Source: Deltaproteobacteria bacterium (GTDB lineage Bacteria; Myxococcota_A; Polyangia; Polyangiales; Houyiibacteriaceae). From it: DNA of 36,910 bases. The notes below the pieces were generated by a model. It searched no databases and was not told where the DNA came from. It saw only the letters and a list, made by a program, of their open reading frames with translations. Of this stretch, positions 13,722-24,488 are shown in pieces. Numbering within the stretch: the first letter of the stretch is position 1; each line of letters begins with the position of its first letter. The DNA is taken from assembly GCA_034670305.1 (NCBI GenBank), contig JAXMNT010000067.1:1-36910 (forward strand), written 5' to 3'. The position numbers were made by a program, and so were the translations under genes.

Positions 13722-16274
13722 GTGGTTGATCCCGTCCGACTGCACCGCTTCGATGGCCTAGACCGCTACGCGGTGGTCTCCGTTGAACCGGCGAGCGATC
13801 CGTCTCAGCGCATGGTGCGGGTGGCGCGCGGACCGAGCTCCTCGAAGCTGACGGGCGGTTCGACCTTCGGACCCTATCCGGCGGCCGAGGTCCAGCAGCC
13901 GTTCGGGCTCGCGGTGCAGCAGCTGCTGGACGAAGGGTTCTCGAAGATCATTCCTGGTTGGGACTTGATCGCGCAGCTCGACTCCGGGGCCCCGTCCGAG
14001 CGGGCGCGCGCGGCGGTGCGCATCGGCTGGCGTCGACGCGACGACGTGGTGCCGAAGCTGCTCGCGTTGGCCGAGTCCGCGTTTGCCGCCAACCGCGGCG
14101 AGGTGTGTTCGTTCGTGGACGCCCTCGGCCTCATCGGCGACAAGCGCGCCATCGATCTCGCGCGCCGGATGGCCGAACGGAAGAACCTCTCCCGCCGCCG
14201 TTCGGGGGTGGAGGCGCTCCGCAACCTCGGCGACACCGAAGGGCTCGCGCTCGCGCGGCAGCGCGGATTCGACCGGCTGCCGCCGACCGTCAAGACGGTC
14301 ATGGCGGATCTCGACGAGACGAGCGAACAAAGCGCGCAGCTCAAGACGTTGCTCGACGCCGTGCGCGGCTGCGATGCGCGCCGGTTCGGGTTGATCGCCG
14401 ACGTGCTCTACGAAGCGGGCACACCCGTCACGGTCGCTGCCGCGCGCCGGGTACTGACCTTCAGCAAACTCGGCCGGCCGCACATCTGGCGCTACGCCAA
14501 GAGCGTGCTCCGTCGGGCGATGCTCCGCCGCGACGTGAAGACCTTCGGCTACATCGCACACGCGGTCGAACTCGAGAGCCGCGGCAACAAGGGCACCACC
14601 GCGTTGCTCAAGTCGGGACTCGACGGGCAGAAGAAACACCTCTCGGTCTTCCGGGTCGACACGCAGGAGTACGTCAAACGCGCGTGCTGGCGATTCCTCC
14701 GCGACCTCGCGGTTTGGGAACCTCAGAAGTACGCCCGCGCCTGCGCTGAAGTGCTCGTGCACTACACCACCCAGGACGTGCAGATGCCGAAGGGCTTCGT
14801 GCCCGCGACGGGCCGCGCGTACCTGCTCGGGCGCATCGTGCGCGGCAAGAGCAAGCGCATGAAGCTGCGCGGCACCATCTGGCGCTACCGCAACCACGCG
14901 TCGACCAAGCCGCCGCCGGCTGGCGTGCGCGAAGAGTCGTATCCGGAGCTCTGGGATGCGGGCCGCGAGGCGTATCTGCGGGTGCTCAGCGGCGCGAAGC
15001 TGCCCGAGGTGTTCGCCTTTGGTTTTCAGGGGCTGTTGCGGCACCCCGACATCCTCGAACACGCGACCACCAAGCAGCTCGTGCAGTTGCTCGAGACCGA
15101 TCCATCCATGACCGCGGGCACCCCGCTCGTCGATTTGGTCGTGAAGGAACTCGACCGCCGCTTCGACCCCGCGAAGCCTGATCTGAAGTTGCTCTTTCGT
15201 TTCGCCGCGAGTCCTTCGAGCAGCCGGCCCGAGGTGCGCAAGGTGCTGGTCGGCTGGATCGATCGCAGCGTTTCGTTCTGGTCGAAGGACGAACAGGCGG
15301 TGTTCTCGCTGCCGCTCGCGGTCGATGGTGCGGTGCGCGCTGCGGTTGTCGAAGCCCTCTCCAGAAGTTTCGAAGGGGACGCGGCGCTGCGGGCGGCGTA
15401 CGCGCCGGGCTTCCTCGCCATCCTCCAGAAGCCGGAAGCGACGCCCGGACAGTACGCGGCGTTCGCTGCGATCGCGCGCCGCTCGCTGCTCGCCGAACTC
15501 GGCGCGAAGCTCGACATGGACGCGCTGATGACCTGGCTCGACGAAGGTTCGTCGAGCGGCCGTTCGGTCGCGGGTGCGATCCTCGGCATTCGACCCGGCG
15601 CGCTGCAAGCGCTCGGCATGGAACGCATCGTCGCCATGGCGGACGACGAGATCGCCGCAGTGCGTGGCGCGGCGCACGCGCTCCTGCGCTCGGCGCTCGA
15701 TCAGCTGCGCGAGGATCCGTCGGTGCTCTTCGCGCTCGCGGAGTCGATCTGGGACGACACCCGCAAGGTGGTCTTCCAGCTGCTCACCGACGAGATCGAT
15801 CTCATCGCGCTCGGGCTGCCGGGGCTCATCGGGCTGTGCGACTCGAGCGATCCCGTGGTCGAAGCGCTGGGCCGCGAGCTGGTGGTGAAACACTTCGATG
15901 CGCTCGACGCCGAAGAGGTCCTCTACCGCCTGAGCGAACACCCGAGCCAGAAGATGCAGGCGTTCGCCCTCGGGCTCATCCGGGACCATCTGCGCCCGGG
16001 CTACATCCCGCTCGCGCGCCTCGAAGGGTTCTTCCGCGCGGTGCTCTTCGATGTGTCTCCGTCGCGTCCCATCAAAGACGGCGTGCTCGGCCTGCTCCTT
16101 CACCGGGGCCGGATCGAAGAACGGCAGGCGGAGTTCGCCGCGCAGATCCTCGGGGACCTGCTCCGCACCCACACCCAGTACGACTTCGACTACGTCGCGT
16201 CCGCGCTCGCCCAGCTCCAGACGCTCCATCCTTCCGTGTCCACCGACCTTCAGCTCAAGAAGGCCAGCGCATGA
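13722..16274 (+). CDS. Retron-associated HEAT/ARM-repeat protein with a divergent WGR-like N-terminus (850 aa)
   Basis: HEAT-like units (SERARAAVRIG, RRRSGVEALRNLGD, AVRGAAHALL, SIWDDTRKVVFQLL). The N-terminal beta-rich segment ends PFGLAVQQLLDEGFS, like the WGR C-terminal helix. Its stop overlaps the next start (ATGA). Confidence 0.8.
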   Translation: MVDPVRLHRFDGLDRYAVVSVEPASDPSQRMVRVARGPSSSKLTGGSTFGPYPAAEVQQPFGLAVQQLLDEGFSKIIPGWDLIAQLDSGAPSERARAAVRIGWRRRDDVVPKLLALAESAFAANRGEVCSFVDALGLIGDKRAIDLARRMAERKNLSRRRSGVEALRNLGDTEGLALARQRGFDRLPPTVKTVMADLDETSEQSAQLKTLLDAVRGCDARRFGLIADVLYEAGTPVTVAAARRVLTFSKLGRPHIWRYAKSVLRRAMLRRDVKTFGYIAHAVELESRGNKGTTALLKSGLDGQKKHLSVFRVDTQEYVKRACWRFLRDLAVWEPQKYARACAEVLVHYTTQDVQMPKGFVPATGRAYLLGRIVRGKSKRMKLRGTIWRYRNHASTKPPPAGVREESYPELWDAGREAYLRVLSGAKLPEVFAFGFQGLLRHPDILEHATTKQLVQLLETDPSMTAGTPLVDLVVKELDRRFDPAKPDLKLLFRFAASPSSSRPEVRKVLVGWIDRSVSFWSKDEQAVFSLPLAVDGAVRAAVVEALSRSFEGDAALRAAYAPGFLAILQKPEATPGQYAAFAAIARRSLLAELGAKLDMDALMTWLDEGSSSGRSVAGAILGIRPGALQALGMERIVAMADDEIAAVRGAAHALLRSALDQLREDPSVLFALAESIWDDTRKVVFQLLTDEIDLIALGLPGLIGLCDSSDPVVEALGRELVVKHFDALDAEEVLYRLSEHPSQKMQAFALGLIRDHLRPGYIPLARLEGFFRAVLFDVSPSRPIKDGVLGLLLHRGRIEERQAEFAAQILGDLLRTHTQYDFDYVASALAQLQTLHPSVSTDLQLKKASA

Positions 16275-17962
16275 AGGTCCAGTTCAAGTACGCCGGCAGC
16301 TCCGGCATCGTCAGCGATCTCTCGAAGTCGCGGGTCGCGTTCGCGACCAACATGCTGCGCGAGCCGAGCTACCTCGAAGCGCAGCTCGCCCGCCCCCTCA
16401 TCGCCCGCGAGGGACTGGCCGCCCTGCATGCGGTGGTGGTCAGCGACTTCAAGTACCGGCCCAAAGACCGGCTCGAGTTCCAGGCCTGGCTCGAAGAGCA
16501 GGACCGGAAGTTCCTCGCGTCGCTCGCGCTCAAGAGCGACGACATCCGCCAGCGGATCGAAGCCAAAGAAGCGCGCCTCGAGGAGCTGCGCGCGCTGCGG
16601 CGCCAGCGCCGCAAACCGTTCATCGACGCCCGCCGCAAATACTTCGAGTACGTCTACGAGAACCAGTACGAGCTCGACTACTTGCTCGACCCGGTCATCA
16701 CGATCCACCCGGACGAGATCGCGTTCGAAGCGTTCAGTCTGGACGAGTCGAGCTATGGGCGACTCGCGCTCAAGTACGATCTGTTCAAGAAGATCGACTC
16801 GTTCGAGTGCGGCACGACGAATGTCGACTTCTCCGCGCGCCTCGCCCAACACGTGGCGCGGCTCCGCAGTTACCGCGACACCCGCTTCGATGTCTCGCCG
16901 AGTGGGTTCACGATCGCGAGCGACGACGTCGCGCACAAAGAGAAGAAGATCGATCTGCCCGAGTCCTGGGTGAAGGGCTTTCACCAGGTCCAGAGCGTGA
17001 TGGCGATGAGCCTCGACCGGCTGCGTCTGGCGCCGATCGATCTGTTCAACCTCATCCGCCACGTGAAGCGCTACAAAGCGCGGACCTCGCCGCGCGCGCT
17101 TCGGTGGGAGCTCACGCCCGGGCAGCCGGCGTGTGTGGTCTTCGAACCCTGGGAGCACAAGATCCAGCTCTCCCCGACGGCGGTCTACGAAGGCCCGAAG
17201 CCGGTGAAGATCCGGACCTGGGGCCGGCGCCGGCTGCTGGTGCTCGAGCGGCTTCTGCACCGATGTGAGAAGGTCGATGTGTTCTTGGCCGGCCACGGCT
17301 TGCCCACCATCTACGTGTGCGACCTCGGCGACGCGACCTTCACGCTCGGCCTGAGCGGCTGGACCGACAACGACTGGACCGGCACGAGCCCGTTCTCGCT
17401 GCTCGAACAGAAGATGGACGTCGACGCGGACGCGCTCAGCACGACCTACCACGGCCTGCGCGAACCCCGGTACGCGACCGCACAGGCGCTCGCGGATCAG
17501 ACGGGCCTCGGGCTCGAGACCACCCGCAGCTCGCTCTCGCTGCTCTGTCAGGCGGGGCGCGCGATGTTCGACCTCGGCGGCGGCGTGTACCGCCACCGCG
17601 ATCTCTTTCACTTCCCCTTCGACGCGAAGAAGGAAGTGGTGAAGCTCAAGAAGCAGGCCGAGGACGACAACCCGAAGGCGAAAGAGGCGCGGAAGATCTT
17701 CGAAGCCGGCGACGCCCGCATCATCGCGCGGCGCCCGCTCATGGGTCAGGCCGACAAACCGGGCTTCAAGCTCAGCGGTTCGGTGCGCGGCAGCGAAGGT
17801 CGGATGCGTCCGCAGCTGCACGTCGCCGACGACGGCTCGATCATCAGCGCGAAGTGCACCTGCACGTACTACAAGAAGTTCAAGCTCACCAAAGGCCCGT
17901 GCGAACACGTACTGGCCCTCCGGCTCGCCCACATGGAACGGCTGGAAGGGGAGGGCGCATGA
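16271..17962 (+). CDS. Retron-associated SWIM zinc-finger protein (563 aa)
   Basis: C-terminal CTC-x12-CEH (AKCTCTYYKKFKLTKGPCEHVLAL); DPVITIHPDEIAFEAFSLDESSYGRL and GTTNVDFS blocks; possible HTH near AQALADQTGLGLETTRSSLSLL; ATGA coupling with the upstream gene. Confidence 0.88.
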   Translation: MKVQFKYAGSSGIVSDLSKSRVAFATNMLREPSYLEAQLARPLIAREGLAALHAVVVSDFKYRPKDRLEFQAWLEEQDRKFLASLALKSDDIRQRIEAKEARLEELRALRRQRRKPFIDARRKYFEYVYENQYELDYLLDPVITIHPDEIAFEAFSLDESSYGRLALKYDLFKKIDSFECGTTNVDFSARLAQHVARLRSYRDTRFDVSPSGFTIASDDVAHKEKKIDLPESWVKGFHQVQSVMAMSLDRLRLAPIDLFNLIRHVKRYKARTSPRALRWELTPGQPACVVFEPWEHKIQLSPTAVYEGPKPVKIRTWGRRRLLVLERLLHRCEKVDVFLAGHGLPTIYVCDLGDATFTLGLSGWTDNDWTGTSPFSLLEQKMDVDADALSTTYHGLREPRYATAQALADQTGLGLETTRSSLSLLCQAGRAMFDLGGGVYRHRDLFHFPFDAKKEVVKLKKQAEDDNPKAKEARKIFEAGDARIIARRPLMGQADKPGFKLSGSVRGSEGRMRPQLHVADDGSIISAKCTCTYYKKFKLTKGPCEHVLALRLAHMERLEGEGA

Positions 17963-18015
17963 TCCCTGTTCAGCAGCCCACTCGGAAGGAGGCGCGCACG
18001 ATCGAGTAGCGACCA

Positions 18016-18269
18016 GTTCGAAGGATCGGGAGGACGTGTCGGCGGGAGCCGTTTAGCAACCCGCGTGGCGTTACGCCGCGCATGCCCCATCGCACGTCAA
18101 CCGTCACGAGTCCGTTCGTCACCACGGGAGCAAGCGCCCCCAGGCCCATTGCTGGTTTGAGACCTCCGGTCTCCTGGGCCGGCGGGGGCGCCTGCTCCCA
18201 TTCAGTGGAACGGCCTCGTCGCAGAGAGAGCGTAGACAACTGTCGACACGTCCTCCGGATCCTTCGAAC
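18016..18269 (+). ncRNA. Retron msr-msd non-coding RNA
   Basis: a1/a2 inverted repeats at 18016-18043 and 18242-18269 (26/28 Watson-Crick, 1 G-U, 1 mismatch); msr stem-loop at 18063-18081; long msd hairpin at 18106-18219. It ends 22 nt before the RT start. Confidence 0.88.
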
Positions 18270-18291
18270 CCGCGCTCACGCGCAACACCCC

Positions 18292-19680
18292 ATGAGCGGC
18301 AAAGACGACAAGAAGAAGCTGTACGAAGAGATCGTCGCGAACACCGACGACGCGATGTTGCTCGACCGGATGACCGATCTCGGTTTCTGGAGCTACGGCG
18401 ACGACATCCCGGACGACCCGGCCGACGAAGCCAAGGAGTGGAACGAACTCGAGTACGAGATCGCGAAGCTTCGGAAGAAGTCCGCCGTCGTCGCCGATCC
18501 GCAGAAGGCGCTGGCGGCGGAGCGGGTCCGGCGCTGGAACGAGTCCAAGACCCGGCGCGCCAAAGCCAAGATCGAACGCGACATCGCCAAGAAGGAGCGC
18601 CGCCAGAAGTGGGAAGACTTCAAGGCGACGCGGCTCGTCACGGCGGGGCACCCCGAGGTGTCGGCCGGGCTCGAGCCGAACCCCAAAGACGCACCGAAGT
18701 GGCTGCCGGGGCTTCCGCAGATCGCCACGCCCGAAGCGCTCGCGACCGCGCTCGGTCTCACAATCGGCCGGCTGCGCTGGTTGACCTTTCACCGCAAGAC
18801 CGCGGCGCTCGTGCACTACCACCGCTTCGAGATCCCGAAGAAGACCGGCGCACCGCGGCTGATCAGCGCACCGAAGAAATCACTCAAACAGGCGCAAGGG
18901 TGGATCCTCCGAGAGATCCTCGAACGCGTGCCGACCGAAGCACCGGCGCACGGCTTCGTGAAGACCAAGAGCGTGAAGACGAACGCGTTGCCCCACGTGA
19001 AGCAGCGCGTGGTGTTGAACCTGGATCTCCAAGACTTCTTTCCCTCGCTCGGTTTTCGACGCGTGAAGGGCCTCTTCCACAAGGGGCTCGGTTATCCAGA
19101 GCCGGTCGCGGTCGTGCTCGCGCTGCTGTGCACCGAACCGCCGCGGGTCGAAGCCGAGCTCGACGGCAAAGTGTTTCACGTCGCGCTCGGCGACCGGGTG
19201 CTGCCCCAGGGCGCGCCCACGAGTCCTGCGATCACCAACCTCGTCTGCCGGCGGCTCGACCGGCGGCTCGGCGGTCTCGCGAAGTCGCTTGGGTTCGCGT
19301 ACACGCGCTACGCGGACGACCTGACCTTCAGCGGGGAACACCGCGGCAAGGTGGGGCGGCTCCTGAAGGCCGTGCGCGACATCGTGCCGGAGGAGGGGTT
19401 CAAGATCCGTGAAGACAAGACCCGCGTGATGCATCGAGGCCGGCGCCAGGAAGTCACCGGCGTCTCGGTGAACCACGCGGTGGCGGTGCCGCGGACCGAA
19501 CGCCGCTTGCTCAGGGCGATCCTCCGGAACGCGAAGAAGTCCGGCAGCCTCGCGTCGCAGAACCGCGCGCAGCACCCGAAGTTCCGGGAGCACCTGACCG
19601 GCCGCATCGCATGGGTCGCCATGGTCGAACCGCGGCACGCAGTGCCACTGCTCGAGATGCTCAAGACCATTCCGGACTAG
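18292..19680 (+). CDS. Retron reverse transcriptase with a Mx162-like N-terminal extension (462 aa)
   Basis: IPKKTGAPRLISAP, AHGF, region X NALPH, LDLQDFFPSL, LPQGAPTSPAITN, YTRYADDLTFS, region Y RQEVTGVSVN; about 140-aa charged helical N-terminal extension. The ATG at 18292 was chosen because the upstream in-frame part is the ncRNA. Confidence 0.95.
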   Translation: MSGKDDKKKLYEEIVANTDDAMLLDRMTDLGFWSYGDDIPDDPADEAKEWNELEYEIAKLRKKSAVVADPQKALAAERVRRWNESKTRRAKAKIERDIAKKERRQKWEDFKATRLVTAGHPEVSAGLEPNPKDAPKWLPGLPQIATPEALATALGLTIGRLRWLTFHRKTAALVHYHRFEIPKKTGAPRLISAPKKSLKQAQGWILREILERVPTEAPAHGFVKTKSVKTNALPHVKQRVVLNLDLQDFFPSLGFRRVKGLFHKGLGYPEPVAVVLALLCTEPPRVEAELDGKVFHVALGDRVLPQGAPTSPAITNLVCRRLDRRLGGLAKSLGFAYTRYADDLTFSGEHRGKVGRLLKAVRDIVPEEGFKIREDKTRVMHRGRRQEVTGVSVNHAVAVPRTERRLLRAILRNAKKSGSLASQNRAQHPKFREHLTGRIAWVAMVEPRHAVPLLEMLKTIPD

Positions 19681-20840
19681 TCCAACTTGGCGAGTCGTTC
19701 CTTCGCGGCTTTCCGAACGCCCGCGTCCTTGGCGCGCGACAGAAGCTCGAGCTTCTCCCGGAACGCGGGAAGGTCCGCGGGCTCCGGATCCGCGACTCGA
19801 CCGATTTCGTTTGCGACTCCCATGCGCACGTTCTTCTCCTCGGCCGCTGCGAAGCGGTGCAACAGCTCGAGCGCTTCGACGGCGCCCACATGCCGAAGCA
19901 TCGTGCGGAGCGCCGCCTGTCGGTGGCCTGGGTACGGTGACCCGAGCACTGCCTCGAGCGCCGTTCGAATCTCGTCGAACGGGAACACGCCCGCGGCGAC
20001 GGCGATCGCATGGTAGTTGGGTGCGTCCTTCTCGAGCTCCTCGCGCAGCCGAACGCGCACTCGATCCGGAAGGCCGGCTTTGGAGTTCAGACTGCTCATC
20101 CAACAGTACACGTCGATGCCGCGGTAGCGCAGTCCGGTCTGCCGGATCACCTCGTCGTAGAGCCAGTCGGGTGCCTTGCTCAGCTCGCGCAGTTGGGTGA
20201 CCGAGTTCACCCCCAGCAGCGCGGTGGGACAGACCTTCGCGATGCCCGCGTCGATGGTGTGACGCACGGGGAGATGCTTCACGTAGGGCAGCGACTCGTG
20301 GAAGCTGCGCAGCCAGAGCGTCAGCAGGGTGAGGAACGTGTCGGGCCACGGGTCGGTTGAGCGGACGCGTTTCACGTACTTCGGGATCTCTCGCGGGGCG
20401 AGCGTTCGACCCGACTTCACCGCCTCCGACCCCGCGTACGTGGCCAGGATCTGACTGTCCCAGACCATCTTCTTCTTGGGGATGCGCCGAATCTCGGCCG
20501 CCGCGAGCGCGCTGGCCGCCAAGTGACGGACCCGCTCGGCCCCGTCCTCGAGGAGCGTCTGAAACAACGGGCCGAGCAGCTTGGTCGGCAGCACGCCTGG
20601 GTGCCGTCCGTCGCCGACCTCCGCGCCGTCGGCTTCGTCCAGCCGGCCCACCACCGCGACCCGCACCGCTTCGTCCGGGTGCTCCGCCAAATGCGCGAGG
20701 ACGGCCACTTCGTCCTTCTTGTGCAGATCGAGCGCGCCCAGCGCCGCCACGGCTTCGCGCGTCGCGTCGTCGAGCAACGCGTCCAGCTGCGCCCGCACCG
20801 CGGCCATCCGTTCCCCGTAGTGCTTCTTCTGCTTCAACAT
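19677..20840 (-). CDS. HEAT-repeat-containing protein (387 aa)
   Basis: HPDEAVRVAVVGRL, GAERVRHLAASAL, EEKNVRMGVANEIG and KDAGVRKAAKERL. The start is 20840 or 20852. Its stop overlaps the RT stop in CTAG. Confidence 0.75.
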   Translation of the reverse strand: MLKQKKHYGERMAAVRAQLDALLDDATREAVAALGALDLHKKDEVAVLAHLAEHPDEAVRVAVVGRLDEADGAEVGDGRHPGVLPTKLLGPLFQTLLEDGAERVRHLAASALAAAEIRRIPKKKMVWDSQILATYAGSEAVKSGRTLAPREIPKYVKRVRSTDPWPDTFLTLLTLWLRSFHESLPYVKHLPVRHTIDAGIAKVCPTALLGVNSVTQLRELSKAPDWLYDEVIRQTGLRYRGIDVYCWMSSLNSKAGLPDRVRVRLREELEKDAPNYHAIAVAAGVFPFDEIRTALEAVLGSPYPGHRQAALRTMLRHVGAVEALELLHRFAAAEEKNVRMGVANEIGRVADPEPADLPAFREKLELLSRAKDAGVRKAAKERLAKLD

Positions 20841-21029
20841 CGTGGCGCCCATCGTACGTTTGTCGCCTGCCCCTGCCGCGAAAGTCCAGCGAGCTCTTGG
20901 CCGCCGCCGAGCTCCCTGGGCCGGCCATGTGGGCGGGGTGATCGCTCGGGACCGAAACGTGTTCTCGGCCGGGACGGGCGTGCGCTGACCGATTCGGCCC
21001 ACGAAATCCCGCGCCGCTGGGAAAGAGCC

Positions 21030-21038
21030 TGGTATTCT
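21030..21038 (+). promoter_or_regulatory. Extended -10 promoter element (TGGTATTCT) for a probably leaderless transcript
   Basis: TGn-TATTCT lies 7 nt before ATG 21046, with no SD. Confidence 0.55.
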
Positions 21039-21045
21039 CCGCGCC

Positions 21046-21633
21046 ATGGCGGTGTTTCGGCTGCGCTACGGCGCGCGCGAGGTCCATCTGCCGCTCGGCA
21101 AATTCACGATCGGCCGCGCGGCGGATTGTACGTTGCGGATTGACGATCAGTGGCTCTCCCGCCACCACGCGATCCTGCGCGTGGAGGTCGACAAGGTCGC
21201 CATTCGGGACGCCGGCTCGCGCAACGGGATCCTGATCAACGGCATCCCCATCCAGACCACCCGGTACCTGGTCGGGGGCGACCGCATCCGCCTCGGAAGC
21301 CATGAGCTGACGCTGCTGCGCGACGATGGTGTGGCGGCCCGCGCGTCGGACGAGACCCGGGACGACCTCCAGATGCTTCGCTCCGCGCCACCGCCCCAGC
21401 CGAACAACGGCGGTCCGCCGCCACCCGACGTGCTGAGCCCGCGCGAGCGAGAAGTGCTCGAGCTGCTTGCGGCCGGGCACACCCAGCGCGAGATCGCGGA
21501 GCGCATCGGGGTGGGCACGAAGTCGGTCGAGACGTACCGCTCCCGGGTGGCCGAGAAGCTCGGCATCAAGTCGCGGGCCGAGCTCGTGCGCTACGCGCTC
21601 CTGCACGGTCTGCTCCGCCCGCCAAAGACGTAG
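21046..21633 (+). CDS. FHA domain + LuxR-type HTH transcriptional regulator
   Basis: FHA motifs IGR, LSRHHA, DAGSRNG and GDRIRLG; LuxR LSPREREVLELLAAGHTQREIAERIGVGTKSVETYRSRVAEKLG. Confidence 0.93.
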   Translation: MAVFRLRYGAREVHLPLGKFTIGRAADCTLRIDDQWLSRHHAILRVEVDKVAIRDAGSRNGILINGIPIQTTRYLVGGDRIRLGSHELTLLRDDGVAARASDETRDDLQMLRSAPPPQPNNGGPPPPDVLSPREREVLELLAAGHTQREIAERIGVGTKSVETYRSRVAEKLGIKSRAELVRYALLHGLLRPPKT

Positions 21634-22624: not shown

Positions 22625-22685
22625 GCGCCCCTTCTCGTAGGGGCGGGTGGCCCGATGGATGGTCCAGCGTAGCGGTCGGCGGGGC
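22625..22685 (+). repeat. Conserved-core dispersed repeat, copy 2 (direct repeat of 13082-13143)
   Basis: Same sequence blocks as copy 1, also preceded by a (GCCGAA)n tract. It lacks the downstream multibranch hairpin. Confidence 0.9.
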
Positions 22686-22709
22686 CCCGTCCCTTCTTGG
22701 GCGCGCGGG

Positions 22710-24488
22710 CTACTGCCGGCGGAGGGCGTCGACCAGGGTGTTGAGTTGTTCGCGGATCCGGATGATGCGGTCGGGATCCTGTTCTTCGAGCGCGCTTCGG
22801 AACACCGCGATCGCGTGGCCGAGCTCTTCGCGCGGGGCGCCGGTGAGCTGGGTGTAGAGCGCGTCGGCGCGCGCCAACGTCGTCCGGTTCGGGAGCGTGT
22901 CGCGCGGGTGGAACTTGTACGCCTTCATCGCTTCGCGTGCTTTGGCGATGTCGTCTTTGCTCAGTTTGCCGGGCGCGCGTTCGATGACGAGGTGTTCGAC
23001 GCGGTCGCTGTCCACGAGCGACATCTCGACTTCGAGGATGCCGTTCAGATCGTAGGTGAACCGCACATCGATGGCCGCGGCGCCCGCGGACCCCGACGGC
23101 ATGTCTTTGACGACGTACTCGCCGAGGAAGGTGTTGTCTTTGCAGAGGCTGTGTTCGCCTTGGTAGATGGCGACGCGGATCTCTTTCTGCTGGTCGTTCA
23201 TGGTGAAGAACCGCTGCGACCGGCTCGCCGGGATCGTCGTGCCGCGTTCGAGCACGGGCGAGTAGAGCCCTTCGATCTGCTGGCGGCCCATCAAGGTGGC
23301 CGTCGCAATGCCCATCGAGAACGGCGCCACATCCGTGACGATCATGTCCTCGACCGCGACGTCCCCGCCCTTGAGCGCGGCCTGAACCGCGGCGCCCATG
23401 GCGACCGCTTCGTCCGCCGGCAGATCCCGCAGTGGCAGCCGTCCGAAGAGCTGCGCCGCCAGGTCGGTCACACACGGCATGCGGGTCGCGCCACCGACGA
23501 GCAGCACTTCTTGGATGTCCTTGGCCTCGAGCTGTGCGTCGCGAAGTGCGCGCAGCACCGGCGCGCGAAGCCGCTCGAGCAGCGAGCGCCAGATGCCTTC
23601 CGCTTCGTCGCGGGTGAACACCCGGTCGACGTCGATGGTCTTCTCGCCGAGCACGAGCCGCGGCACGACCAGGCGCGCTTCGGTCTCGTCGGTGAGGCGG
23701 CGTTTGGTGTCGTCGGCCGCGACGAGCAGACGGGTGTAGGCGCGCAGATCTTCTTCCGCGTCGAAGCCGTGCGCTTCTTTGAGCTCTTCGACGACCTTGT
23801 CCGCCAGCGCTTCGGCGAAGTCTTCGCCGCCGAGGCGGGCGTCGCCCGCGGTCGACTGGATCTCGATGACCCCTTCGATGATCTCGAGCACCGTGACGTC
23901 GAAGGTGCCGCCGCCGAGGTCGAGGACCACCGCCTGCATCTCCTTGTCCCGGTTGTGCAGCCCGTACGCCATCGCCGCCGCCGTCGGCTCGTTGATGATG
24001 CGTTCGACTTTGAGGCCAGCGATCGCGCCCGCGTCGCGGGTGGCCTGCCGCTGCAGATCGCCGAAGTACGCCGGCACCGTCACGACCGCTTCCGAGATCT
24101 TCACGCCGAGCGCGGCTTCCGCGTCGCGTTTGAGGGACTCGAGCACCAGCGCCGACAGCTCCTGGGGTCGAAGCTCTCGTCCCGCGATGGTGATCTTCTT
24201 GTCGGCGCCCATGTCGCGTTTGAAGAACACCGCGGTCTCTTCGGGATGGGTGACCAGCCGCGCGCGGGCCGCGGCGCCGACCAGGACTCGTCCGTCGTCG
24301 TCGAAGCTCACGGCACTCGGGGTCAGTAGTTCGCCGAGCGCGTTCGGAAGCACGAGCGGTTTGCCGCCCTGCATCACCGAGACGAGCGAGTAGGTCGTGC
24401 CGAGATCGATGCCCACGACCACGCCGACGCCCACCGGCGGGTCGGGGGTGTCAGGGTTCTTCTTGTGGAGTGGGATGACCGTCGACAT
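22710..24488 (-). CDS. hscC: Hsp70-family chaperone HscC
   Basis: GIDLGTTYS, TVPAYF, INEPTAAA, DLGGGTFD, LLVGGATRMP, and the HscC-type RFTYDLNGILEV and KFHPRD...NR C-terminus. It sits next to a DjlB-like J-protein gene. Confidence 0.88.
   Translation of the reverse strand: MSTVIPLHKKNPDTPDPPVGVGVVVGIDLGTTYSLVSVMQGGKPLVLPNALGELLTPSAVSFDDDGRVLVGAAARARLVTHPEETAVFFKRDMGADKKITIAGRELRPQELSALVLESLKRDAEAALGVKISEAVVTVPAYFGDLQRQATRDAGAIAGLKVERIINEPTAAAMAYGLHNRDKEMQAVVLDLGGGTFDVTVLEIIEGVIEIQSTAGDARLGGEDFAEALADKVVEELKEAHGFDAEEDLRAYTRLLVAADDTKRRLTDETEARLVVPRLVLGEKTIDVDRVFTRDEAEGIWRSLLERLRAPVLRALRDAQLEAKDIQEVLLVGGATRMPCVTDLAAQLFGRLPLRDLPADEAVAMGAAVQAALKGGDVAVEDMIVTDVAPFSMGIATATLMGRQQIEGLYSPVLERGTTIPASRSQRFFTMNDQQKEIRVAIYQGEHSLCKDNTFLGEYVVKDMPSGSAGAAAIDVRFTYDLNGILEVEMSLVDSDRVEHLVIERAPGKLSKDDIAKAREAMKAYKFHPRDTLPNRTTLARADALYTQLTGAPREELGHAIAVFRSALEEQDPDRIIRIREQLNTLVDALRRQ

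Follow-up and report, generated by a model that had tools for sequence, protein, structure and literature searches.

The msr-msd gene of a probable type XIII retron in a polyangial genome, with priming likely at G18056

Type XIII is, to our knowledge, the oldest known class of retron (Mx162, 1984–89). Mestre 2020 (PMC7736814) equates it with reverse transcriptase (RT) clade 10, defined by its own ncRNA structure and by the genes encoded with the RT, namely a SWIM zinc-finger protein (cluster 114) beside it and a HEAT/ARM plus WGR-like repeat protein ahead of the SWIM gene, and counts Mx162, Mx65, Sa163 and Ne144 among its members. The same source describes the type as largely vertically inherited and perhaps serving another cellular role, and reports a DEDE motif in its SWIM protein, a possible nuclease. 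An N-terminal extension is noted for RTs of this class by Simon 2019 (PMC6868368). Our literature search found no paper testing type XIII function or giving a structure for the SWIM and HEAT/ARM partners.

The window analysed here, meaning the whole stretch of 36,910 nt, contains these components on the plus strand in the order HEAT/ARM-WGR, SWIM, msr-msd, RT, with the following protein-coding genes:

13722..16274, plus strand: HEAT/ARM repeat and WGR-like accessory gene, an 850-aa ORF from the first GTG
16271..17962, plus strand: SWIM zinc-finger accessory gene (563 aa; PADLOC SWIM_XIII 3.2e-179; Pfam SWIM)
18292..19680, plus strand: retron reverse transcriptase (462 aa; PADLOC RT_XIII 1.7e-155; Pfam RVT_1 7.9e-21)

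The product of the first gene matched PADLOC WGR_XIII (1.1e-97) and HEAT-ARM_XIII (4.7e-87) as well as Pfam HEAT_2, and its stop codon overlaps the start of the SWIM gene (ATGA). The SWIM_XIII match begins at residue 146 of the long ORF, the real start being the ATG at 16271. The ncRNA fills the gap that follows, its a1 arm beginning 53 nt after the end of the SWIM gene and its a2 arm ending 22 nt upstream of the RT start. The RT itself is of the retron clade, with NALPH (the NAxxH motif), VTG and YADD present in its translation and an N-terminal extension of about 140 aa. All testable defining features of a retron and of type XIII, including the SWIM gene of cluster 114 beside the RT and the HEAT/ARM plus WGR-like gene ahead of it, were found at the locus. 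We give a probability of roughly 0.8 to the reading of 18016–18269 as the msr-msd gene belonging to a complete type XIII retron and probably primed at G18056. The element is the non-coding RNA gene of an ordinary retron of the Mx162/Ne144 type; the msr-msd is real and well formed, and the locus is a further example of type XIII that adds no new principle by itself.

The genome harbors three complete type XIII retrons, all in the order HEAT/ARM, SWIM, msr-msd, RT. The second and third are as follows:

C23 (L088 3943–9258): second type XIII retron of the genome
C10 (L089 4219–13917), minus strand: third type XIII retron of the genome

The HEAT/ARM proteins of the three differ, at 850, 573 and 2014 aa, and match the PADLOC models PDLC02920/02973, 02922 and 02919, respectively. 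The profile built for the ncRNA family of the window gave no match to the ncRNAs of the C23 and C10 retrons, and in the C23 copy a GAGC-type G seemingly lies directly after a1. Downstream of the retron in the window, a 456-aa HEAT-repeat gene (19677–21047, minus strand; Pfam HEAT_2 1.6e-10) is convergent with the RT gene and ends at its end; it had no PADLOC match. Further on, an ORF at 22647–24329 (plus strand) matched Pfam NAD-GH (NAD-specific glutamate dehydrogenase) at 6.2e-56; such matches in GC-rich genomes are often the antisense frame of a real gene.

Within the ncRNA gene, the following elements can be assigned:

18016..18045, plus strand: a1, 5' arm of the terminal stem, pairing with 18240–18269
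18051..18055, plus strand: 5' strand of an inner helix (P0), GTTTA, directly 5' of G18056 and pairing with 18233–37
18056, plus strand: most likely branching guanosine, within TTTAGCAA; G followed by C in all 49 copies
18063..18081, plus strand: msr hairpin GCGTGGCG-TTA-CGCCGCGC, 8 pairs
18106..18219, plus strand: long msd hairpin, predicted template of the msDNA stem, with a conserved lower and a variable upper stem
18149..18158, plus strand: asymmetric loop (bulge) TTGCTGGTTT, below the apical hairpin
18159..18173, plus strand: apical hairpin GAGACC-TCC-GGTCTC, pairing checked by script
18231..18232, plus strand: C18231, putative first template base, and G18232, which faces the branching G
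18233..18237, plus strand: 3' strand of P0, TAGAC, pairing with 18051–55
18240..18269, plus strand: a2, 3' arm of the terminal stem, pairing with 18016–18045

The predicted RNA fold of 18010–18275 (266 nt) has an energy of −148.3 kcal/mol, compared with −107.3 ± 5.2 kcal/mol for 200 dinucleotide shuffles, none of which folded as well (z −7.84). A repeat search likewise recovered 26-nt arms with 96% complementarity and, in addition, a 36-nt inverted repeat in the msd. Every pairing listed in a preliminary description of the stretch was confirmed by script at its coordinates. The msr hairpin (18063–70/18074–81) comprises seven Watson-Crick pairs and one U.G closed by the loop TTA; the msd helices 18106–10/18215–19, 18112–17/18208–13, 18143–48/18175–80 and 18159–64/18168–73 are perfect; and the helix 18126–41/18184–99 has A18133.C18192 as its sole mismatch. 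The terminal stem described at 18016–18043/18242–18269 also stood, with 26 Watson-Crick pairs and one G.U (18042/18243), plus a G.G mismatch (18028/18257) that had gone unmentioned. Its proposed extension by two pairs holds in the inward direction only (G18044.U18241 and G18045-C18240), 18014–15/18270–71 being unpaired. The full a1/a2, the terminal inverted repeats that pair in a retron transcript, thus spans 30 positions, with 27 Watson-Crick pairs, two G.U and the one G.G mismatch (29 paired). The P0 helix, 5 bp including one U.G, is part of the minimum free energy fold and had been missed.

Rfam gave no match at the gathering score in the whole window and, at E values up to 1, only three miRNA-precursor models on the msd hairpin, far below their thresholds and at chance level. 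A scan of 17700–18400 for promoters and terminators returned no sigma-70-like promoter and no intrinsic terminator; the empty promoter scan says little, as myxobacterial promoters may not fit the sigma-70 consensus.

Compared with type XIII retrons as described by Mestre 2020 (PMC7736814), the locus has the same three protein families, an ncRNA directly upstream of an N-terminally extended RT and, within that ncRNA, a long a1/a2 together with an msr hairpin that is short and an msd hairpin that is long, a likeness judged by the text description. Nothing that defines the type differs, and this locus with its exact ncRNA sequence is not among the validated examples. Retron-Mxa1 (Mx162) and Retron-Sau1 (Sa163) of Myxococcaceae belong to the same type and also have a long a1/a2, a long-hairpin msDNA and an extended RT. 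Their priming motif, however, is CAGC as given by Simon 2019 (PMC6868368), whereas it is TAGC here, and Mx162 yields 162 nt of DNA from a 241-nt transcript as described, against a G-to-G distance of 176 nt and at most about 150 nt of predicted DNA at this locus. Assignment to the Mx162/Sa163 ncRNA subfamily (CAGC, a transcript of about 240 nt and 162–163 nt of DNA) was considered and rejected, given the TAGC motif and 176-nt span. Nor did the Myxococcaceae loci L006 and L048 give a match to the profile of the window's ncRNA family.

Retron-Nex2 (Ne144) from Nannocystis exedens, of the same type and from a myxobacterial branch outside Myxococcaceae, has an msDNA of 144 nt, which falls within the range predicted here, and the locus may be nearer to Ne144, a comparison judged by description only. 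Genomic msDNA-like repeats have been reported from N. exedens (cited in Simon 2019, PMC6868368), whereas the msd occurs once in the present 7.9-Mb genome, where a search for further copies found none beyond a 21-nt match. Outside the type, Retron-Eco1 (Ec86) shares the TAGC priming motif at the inner a1/a2 end with a G opposite, but it has an RT of another clade, another effector (type II-A), an 86-nt msDNA and an a1/a2 of about 12 bp, with no internal loop between main stem and priming G.

A search with the RT, limited to one genome per species, led to 80 loci that were fetched. The best were from Myxococcota and Polyangiales MAGs (65–68% identity) and others from Planctomycetota, Acidobacteriota, Cyanobacteria, Verrucomicrobiota and Proteobacteria. 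An inverted-repeat search upstream of 49 of these RT genes found, for most of them, a1/a2-like arms 218–285 nt apart and ending 2–80 nt before the RT gene. An nhmmer profile of the aligned core detected 49 msr-msd copies in the window and 44 of the 80 RT loci. Covariation was assessed on 26 aligned a1...a2 spans (MAFFT, alignment A2), leaving out the near-duplicates L037 and L033. RNAalifold recovered both the msr hairpin and the msd stem from these spans, and compensatory (both-side) changes were present in 32 of 42 msr/msd pairs. Paired cells made up 89.8% of 1088, compared with 35.8%–41.1% when partners were slid by 1–3 columns, and the covariation score was 0.540 versus 0.175 for shuffles; on none of the five measures did any of 500 shuffles come up to the alignment. 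The msr hairpin was paired in 98.6% of cells across the 26 sequences, with compensatory changes in three pairs; for the msd (helices 2–6), both-side changes were seen in 29 of 34 pairs, including all five pairs of the apical hairpin (helix 6). The family thus has the covariation-supported layout of a retron ncRNA, in which one to three short msr hairpins precede a long msd stem-loop.

The a1/a2 arms were out of register in A2 and were not predicted by RNAalifold, and were therefore examined by a duplex test in which every a1 side was paired with every a2 side of the 26 loci. Mean duplex energy was −51.5 kcal/mol for cognate arms versus −22.5 kcal/mol for non-cognate arms, and the cognate arm was the best partner in 25 of the 26 loci, the exception involving a close relative. 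Between loci, a1 has a median right-anchored identity of 0.30. The preliminary description had read the element as the msr-msd of a retron, in which a long a1/a2 encloses an msr hairpin and an extended msd hairpin, and had named absent covariation of the stems as a refutation. Gene context and covariation across homologues agree with this reading, and the stems thus passed the description's own refutation test.

Concerning the branching guanosine, that description fared differently. Its preferred G18048 is absent from the closest relatives, and the conserved guanosine is G18056, which it had listed as a third alternative (the G of TTAGC). In 49 of 49 copies this G is followed by C, preceded by a covarying helix and faced by C-G, giving the geometry [3–6 bp helix]-G-C ... 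C-G-[helix] with a G-to-G distance of 175–187 nt, mostly 176–180 nt (176 nt from G18056 to G18232 in the window). The C-G partner was located by looking for the 'CG' whose adjoining helix was best, which in part builds in its occurrence in 49 of 49 copies. Independent of that search, at least 27 of the 30 representatives agree on the base in each of the branch-G and C-G columns. Anchors for C-G were set by hand in L031/L033 and L005, and the window copies L081–L083 and L085 were left out of the geometry and wobble counts. The sequence at the priming site is mostly TTGCAA, with TTTAGCAA in the window's subgroup and GAGCAT and TCGCCA once each, and the helix equivalent to P0 changes in compensation (CCTT/AAGG, GTTTA/TAGAC or TAGAT, GTTTC/GAAAC, CGA/TCG). 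What is conserved is thus a G at the inner stem end facing an msd-side G, as at retron priming sites.

Copying in Ec86 begins at the C that immediately precedes the opposing G on its 5' side, and by this analogy C18231 is the putative first template base here. TAGC is the commonest retron priming motif, with the priming G in or immediately 3' of the inner stem end, according to Simon 2019 (PMC6868368), and 'two opposing G residues' are marked in the retron consensus (Mestre 2020 Figure 2 legend, PMC7736814). Because of the conserved G-C...C-G geometry, the TAGC motif and the opposing Gs, we place the branch at G18056, which, given a working retron, is very probably the priming residue as judged from sequence conservation. 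The main a1/a2 helix ends 10 nt before this G is reached, and the adjacency of G18056 to a stem depends on P0. The constancy of the spacing across phyla, despite a varying upper msd stem, suggests a length constraint on the msr-plus-msd unit.

In established retron biochemistry, the RT primes on its own RNA, RNase H removes the template, and a short RNA-DNA overlap is left (Simon 2019, PMC6868368; Mestre 2020, PMC7736814). In the proposed mechanism, a1 (18016–45) and a2 (18240–69) form the 30-position stem, continued by a small internal loop and P0, at whose inner end G18056 faces G18232; this much, like the covariation, the gene context and the strand asymmetry of the msd described below, is shown by the sequences. 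By analogy, the RT encoded 22 nt downstream would recognize the conserved msr hairpin (18063–81), prime from the 2'-OH of G18056 and copy the RNA leftwards from C18231, with RNase H removing the template. Synthesis would stop within 18082–18105, before the msr hairpin, leaving a short overlap; G18056 priming, the first template base and this termination zone are all placed from retron biochemistry. The product would be a branched msDNA of about 127–150 nt, its body being the DNA version of the 18106–18219 hairpin, and, on the model of other retron types, the RNA-DNA hybrid with the RT may hold or inform the SWIM and HEAT/ARM proteins.

The size follows from the 126 nt that separate C18231 from the hairpin base at 18106, taken as a minimum, plus the usual short RNA-DNA overlap, with the end necessarily preceding the msr hairpin (18081). 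The predicted msDNA should therefore measure about 127–150 nt and start opposite C18231. The earlier estimate of 140–150 nt, which assumed a start some 8–10 nt further right, is thereby widened at its lower end. The annotation, with its likely priming G, putative first template base and map of constant and variable parts, supplies a construct that could be used directly to map msDNA and to test the accessory proteins.

From single positions, the preliminary description had also proposed that the msd folds as DNA, setting its A.C mismatch against a G-U wobble on the RNA strand of a1/a2. Where the RNA has an A.C juxtaposition, the cDNA has a T.G wobble, and an excess of A.C is therefore expected if the DNA form is under selection. 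We therefore counted isolated non-Watson-Crick juxtapositions flanked by stacked Watson-Crick pairs in 30 representatives (<85% identity), using a stem search that scored G.U and A.C alike. Because the representatives are related, the p-values are approximate:

msd stems: A.C 25, G.U 7, binomial p 0.002
msr hairpin: A.C 2, G.U 34, binomial p 1.9e-08
a1/a2: A.C 29, G.U 37, binomial p 0.39, not significant

The proposal thus held family-wide in the msd, but its counterpart, a G.U excess in a1/a2, was not significant; the stem search probably over-extends the a1/a2 arms. One or two conserved wobble pairs account for most of the G.U count in the msr. Consistent with the msd result, the cDNA-sense msd was more stable in 19 of 30 representatives (Wilcoxon p 0.013), and the antisense strand of the msr was more stable in only 3 of 30. 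For the msd of the window, DNA parameters gave −44.9 kcal/mol for the cDNA strand (z −5.6) and −36.7 kcal/mol for the sense strand (z −3.4).

All 20 sequencing runs containing the stretch are stored as assembled contigs, in which depth, molecule ends and msDNA copy number are unreadable; four were compared over 17800–18500, and uncovered parts of this interval in X13 and X14 were taken as no evidence either way. One RNA library holds a 179-nt contig that corresponds in its entirety to 18050–18228, with one difference (C18125T, in a loop) and no loose ends. An RNA library from another study holds a 152-nt contig (depth 19) that is identical to 18070–18221 over its whole length, again with no loose ends. 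Both lie wholly between a1 and a2, with left ends 20 nt apart and right ends 7 nt apart. Given these unequal ends, and given that RNA libraries may contain DNA, the contigs hint weakly at best at a discrete and abundant species with a1 and a2 as its bounds. In relatives, DNA contigs (X5 and X6) run through the region. Within 18016–18269, X6 has one substitution (A18082T) and X5 has none, with one inserted base after 18268, and differences are many in the flanks (17963–17980 and 18276–18288) and in the RT gene. The marine metagenome X5 also contains short contigs, at depths up to 883, that match 17859–17893 (35 nt, SWIM-finger coding) with 4–5 differences and loose ends, and these probably represent a conserved or repeated motif from other organisms.

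Three other explanations were weighed against this evidence. The same retron could be primed at G18048 (in GAGC) or G18046, in which case msDNA would start opposite about 18238–18239. Simon 2019 (PMC6868368) reports GAGC as the motif at which Mx65 is primed, G18046 comes immediately after the final pair of the 30-position helix, and a second retron of the same genome (L086) appears to have a GAGC-type G right after its a1. Neither G is conserved, however, and in L001 and L013, the nearest relatives that share the msd, TTTAGCAA is kept with no GAGC upstream. Both Gs also sit in the 5-nt internal loop between main stem and P0 with A and A (18238–39) rather than a G opposite, and the G-C ... C-G geometry of all 49 copies is at the G18056 position, so we regard priming at either as unlikely.

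Still less probable is that the conserved structure acts only as RNA, as a leader controlling RT translation or as a scaffold, with no msDNA made. No msDNA was seen in the data used here, RNA alone could account for the RNA-library contigs, and type XIII retrons are described as largely vertically inherited and perhaps domesticated (Mestre 2020, PMC7736814). Nonetheless, the RT keeps YADD, NAxxH and VTG, the msd surplus of A.C over G.U is sensible only if the complementary DNA strand folds, and the validated Mx162, Mx65, Sa163 and Ne144 all make msDNA according to Table 1 of Mestre 2020 (PMC7736814). That the element is a generic intergenic inverted repeat (REP-like, terminator or attenuator) unrelated to the RT can be given almost no weight. 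Its position in an intergenic gap after the SWIM gene would fit, but it is not repeated in the genome beyond the 21-nt match, it has no T-run terminator, and it covaries and co-occurs with RT_XIII homologues in distant phyla. A type XIII msr-msd primed at G18056 is the reading we prefer.

In the type XIII family defined by this ncRNA, constant and variable parts can be told apart. The priming motif, the msr hairpin, 18096–18128 (just before and within the lower msd 5' arm), 18197–18220 (lower 3' arm) and the C-G at 18231–32 are conserved, and the upper stem (18126–48/18175–99) and a1/a2 are variable yet paired. In the loop region, 27 of 30 representatives share G18154 and G18155, 23 share T18158 and 25 share G18159. 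The conservation of G18154 and G18155 indicates that the loop at 18149–58 is constrained. This agrees with the suggestion in the preliminary description that the loop is a sensed element, and its partner may be the RT, an accessory protein or a factor from a phage.

We tentatively raise, as a rather doubtful possibility, that msDNA in this type XIII branch is modular. The msr, lower msd stem, GG loop, apical hairpin and G-to-G spacing of about 177 nt would be its constant frame, although we consider this partition speculative too, and the freely varying, self-complementary upper stem would be a specificity cassette. That the SWIM and HEAT/ARM proteins, or else some phage factor, would read such a cassette is an equally conjectural part of the idea. 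If it were true, the loci L004, L002, L011 and L024, with two to four msr-msd genes per RT that would differ only in this cassette, would be natural multi-msDNA retrons and the single copy in the window the simplest form of such a system.

Tandem msr-msd arrays ahead of a single RT were seen in several of the fetched loci, with four copies in a Gemmataceae MAG (L004 3483–4502) and two copies each in L002 (5067–5691), L011 (5461–5901) and L024 (5455–5914); a literature search on msr-msd arrays returned only engineered retron arrays. In L004 the copies agree in msr, lower msd stem, GCTGCTGGGT loop and apical hairpin, and their upper stems are unrelated to each other but self-complementary. Between this array and its RT lies a 466-aa ORF (L004 4604–6004) with no PADLOC match, whose end overlaps the RT start and which may be either spurious, in GC-rich DNA, or an extra gene.
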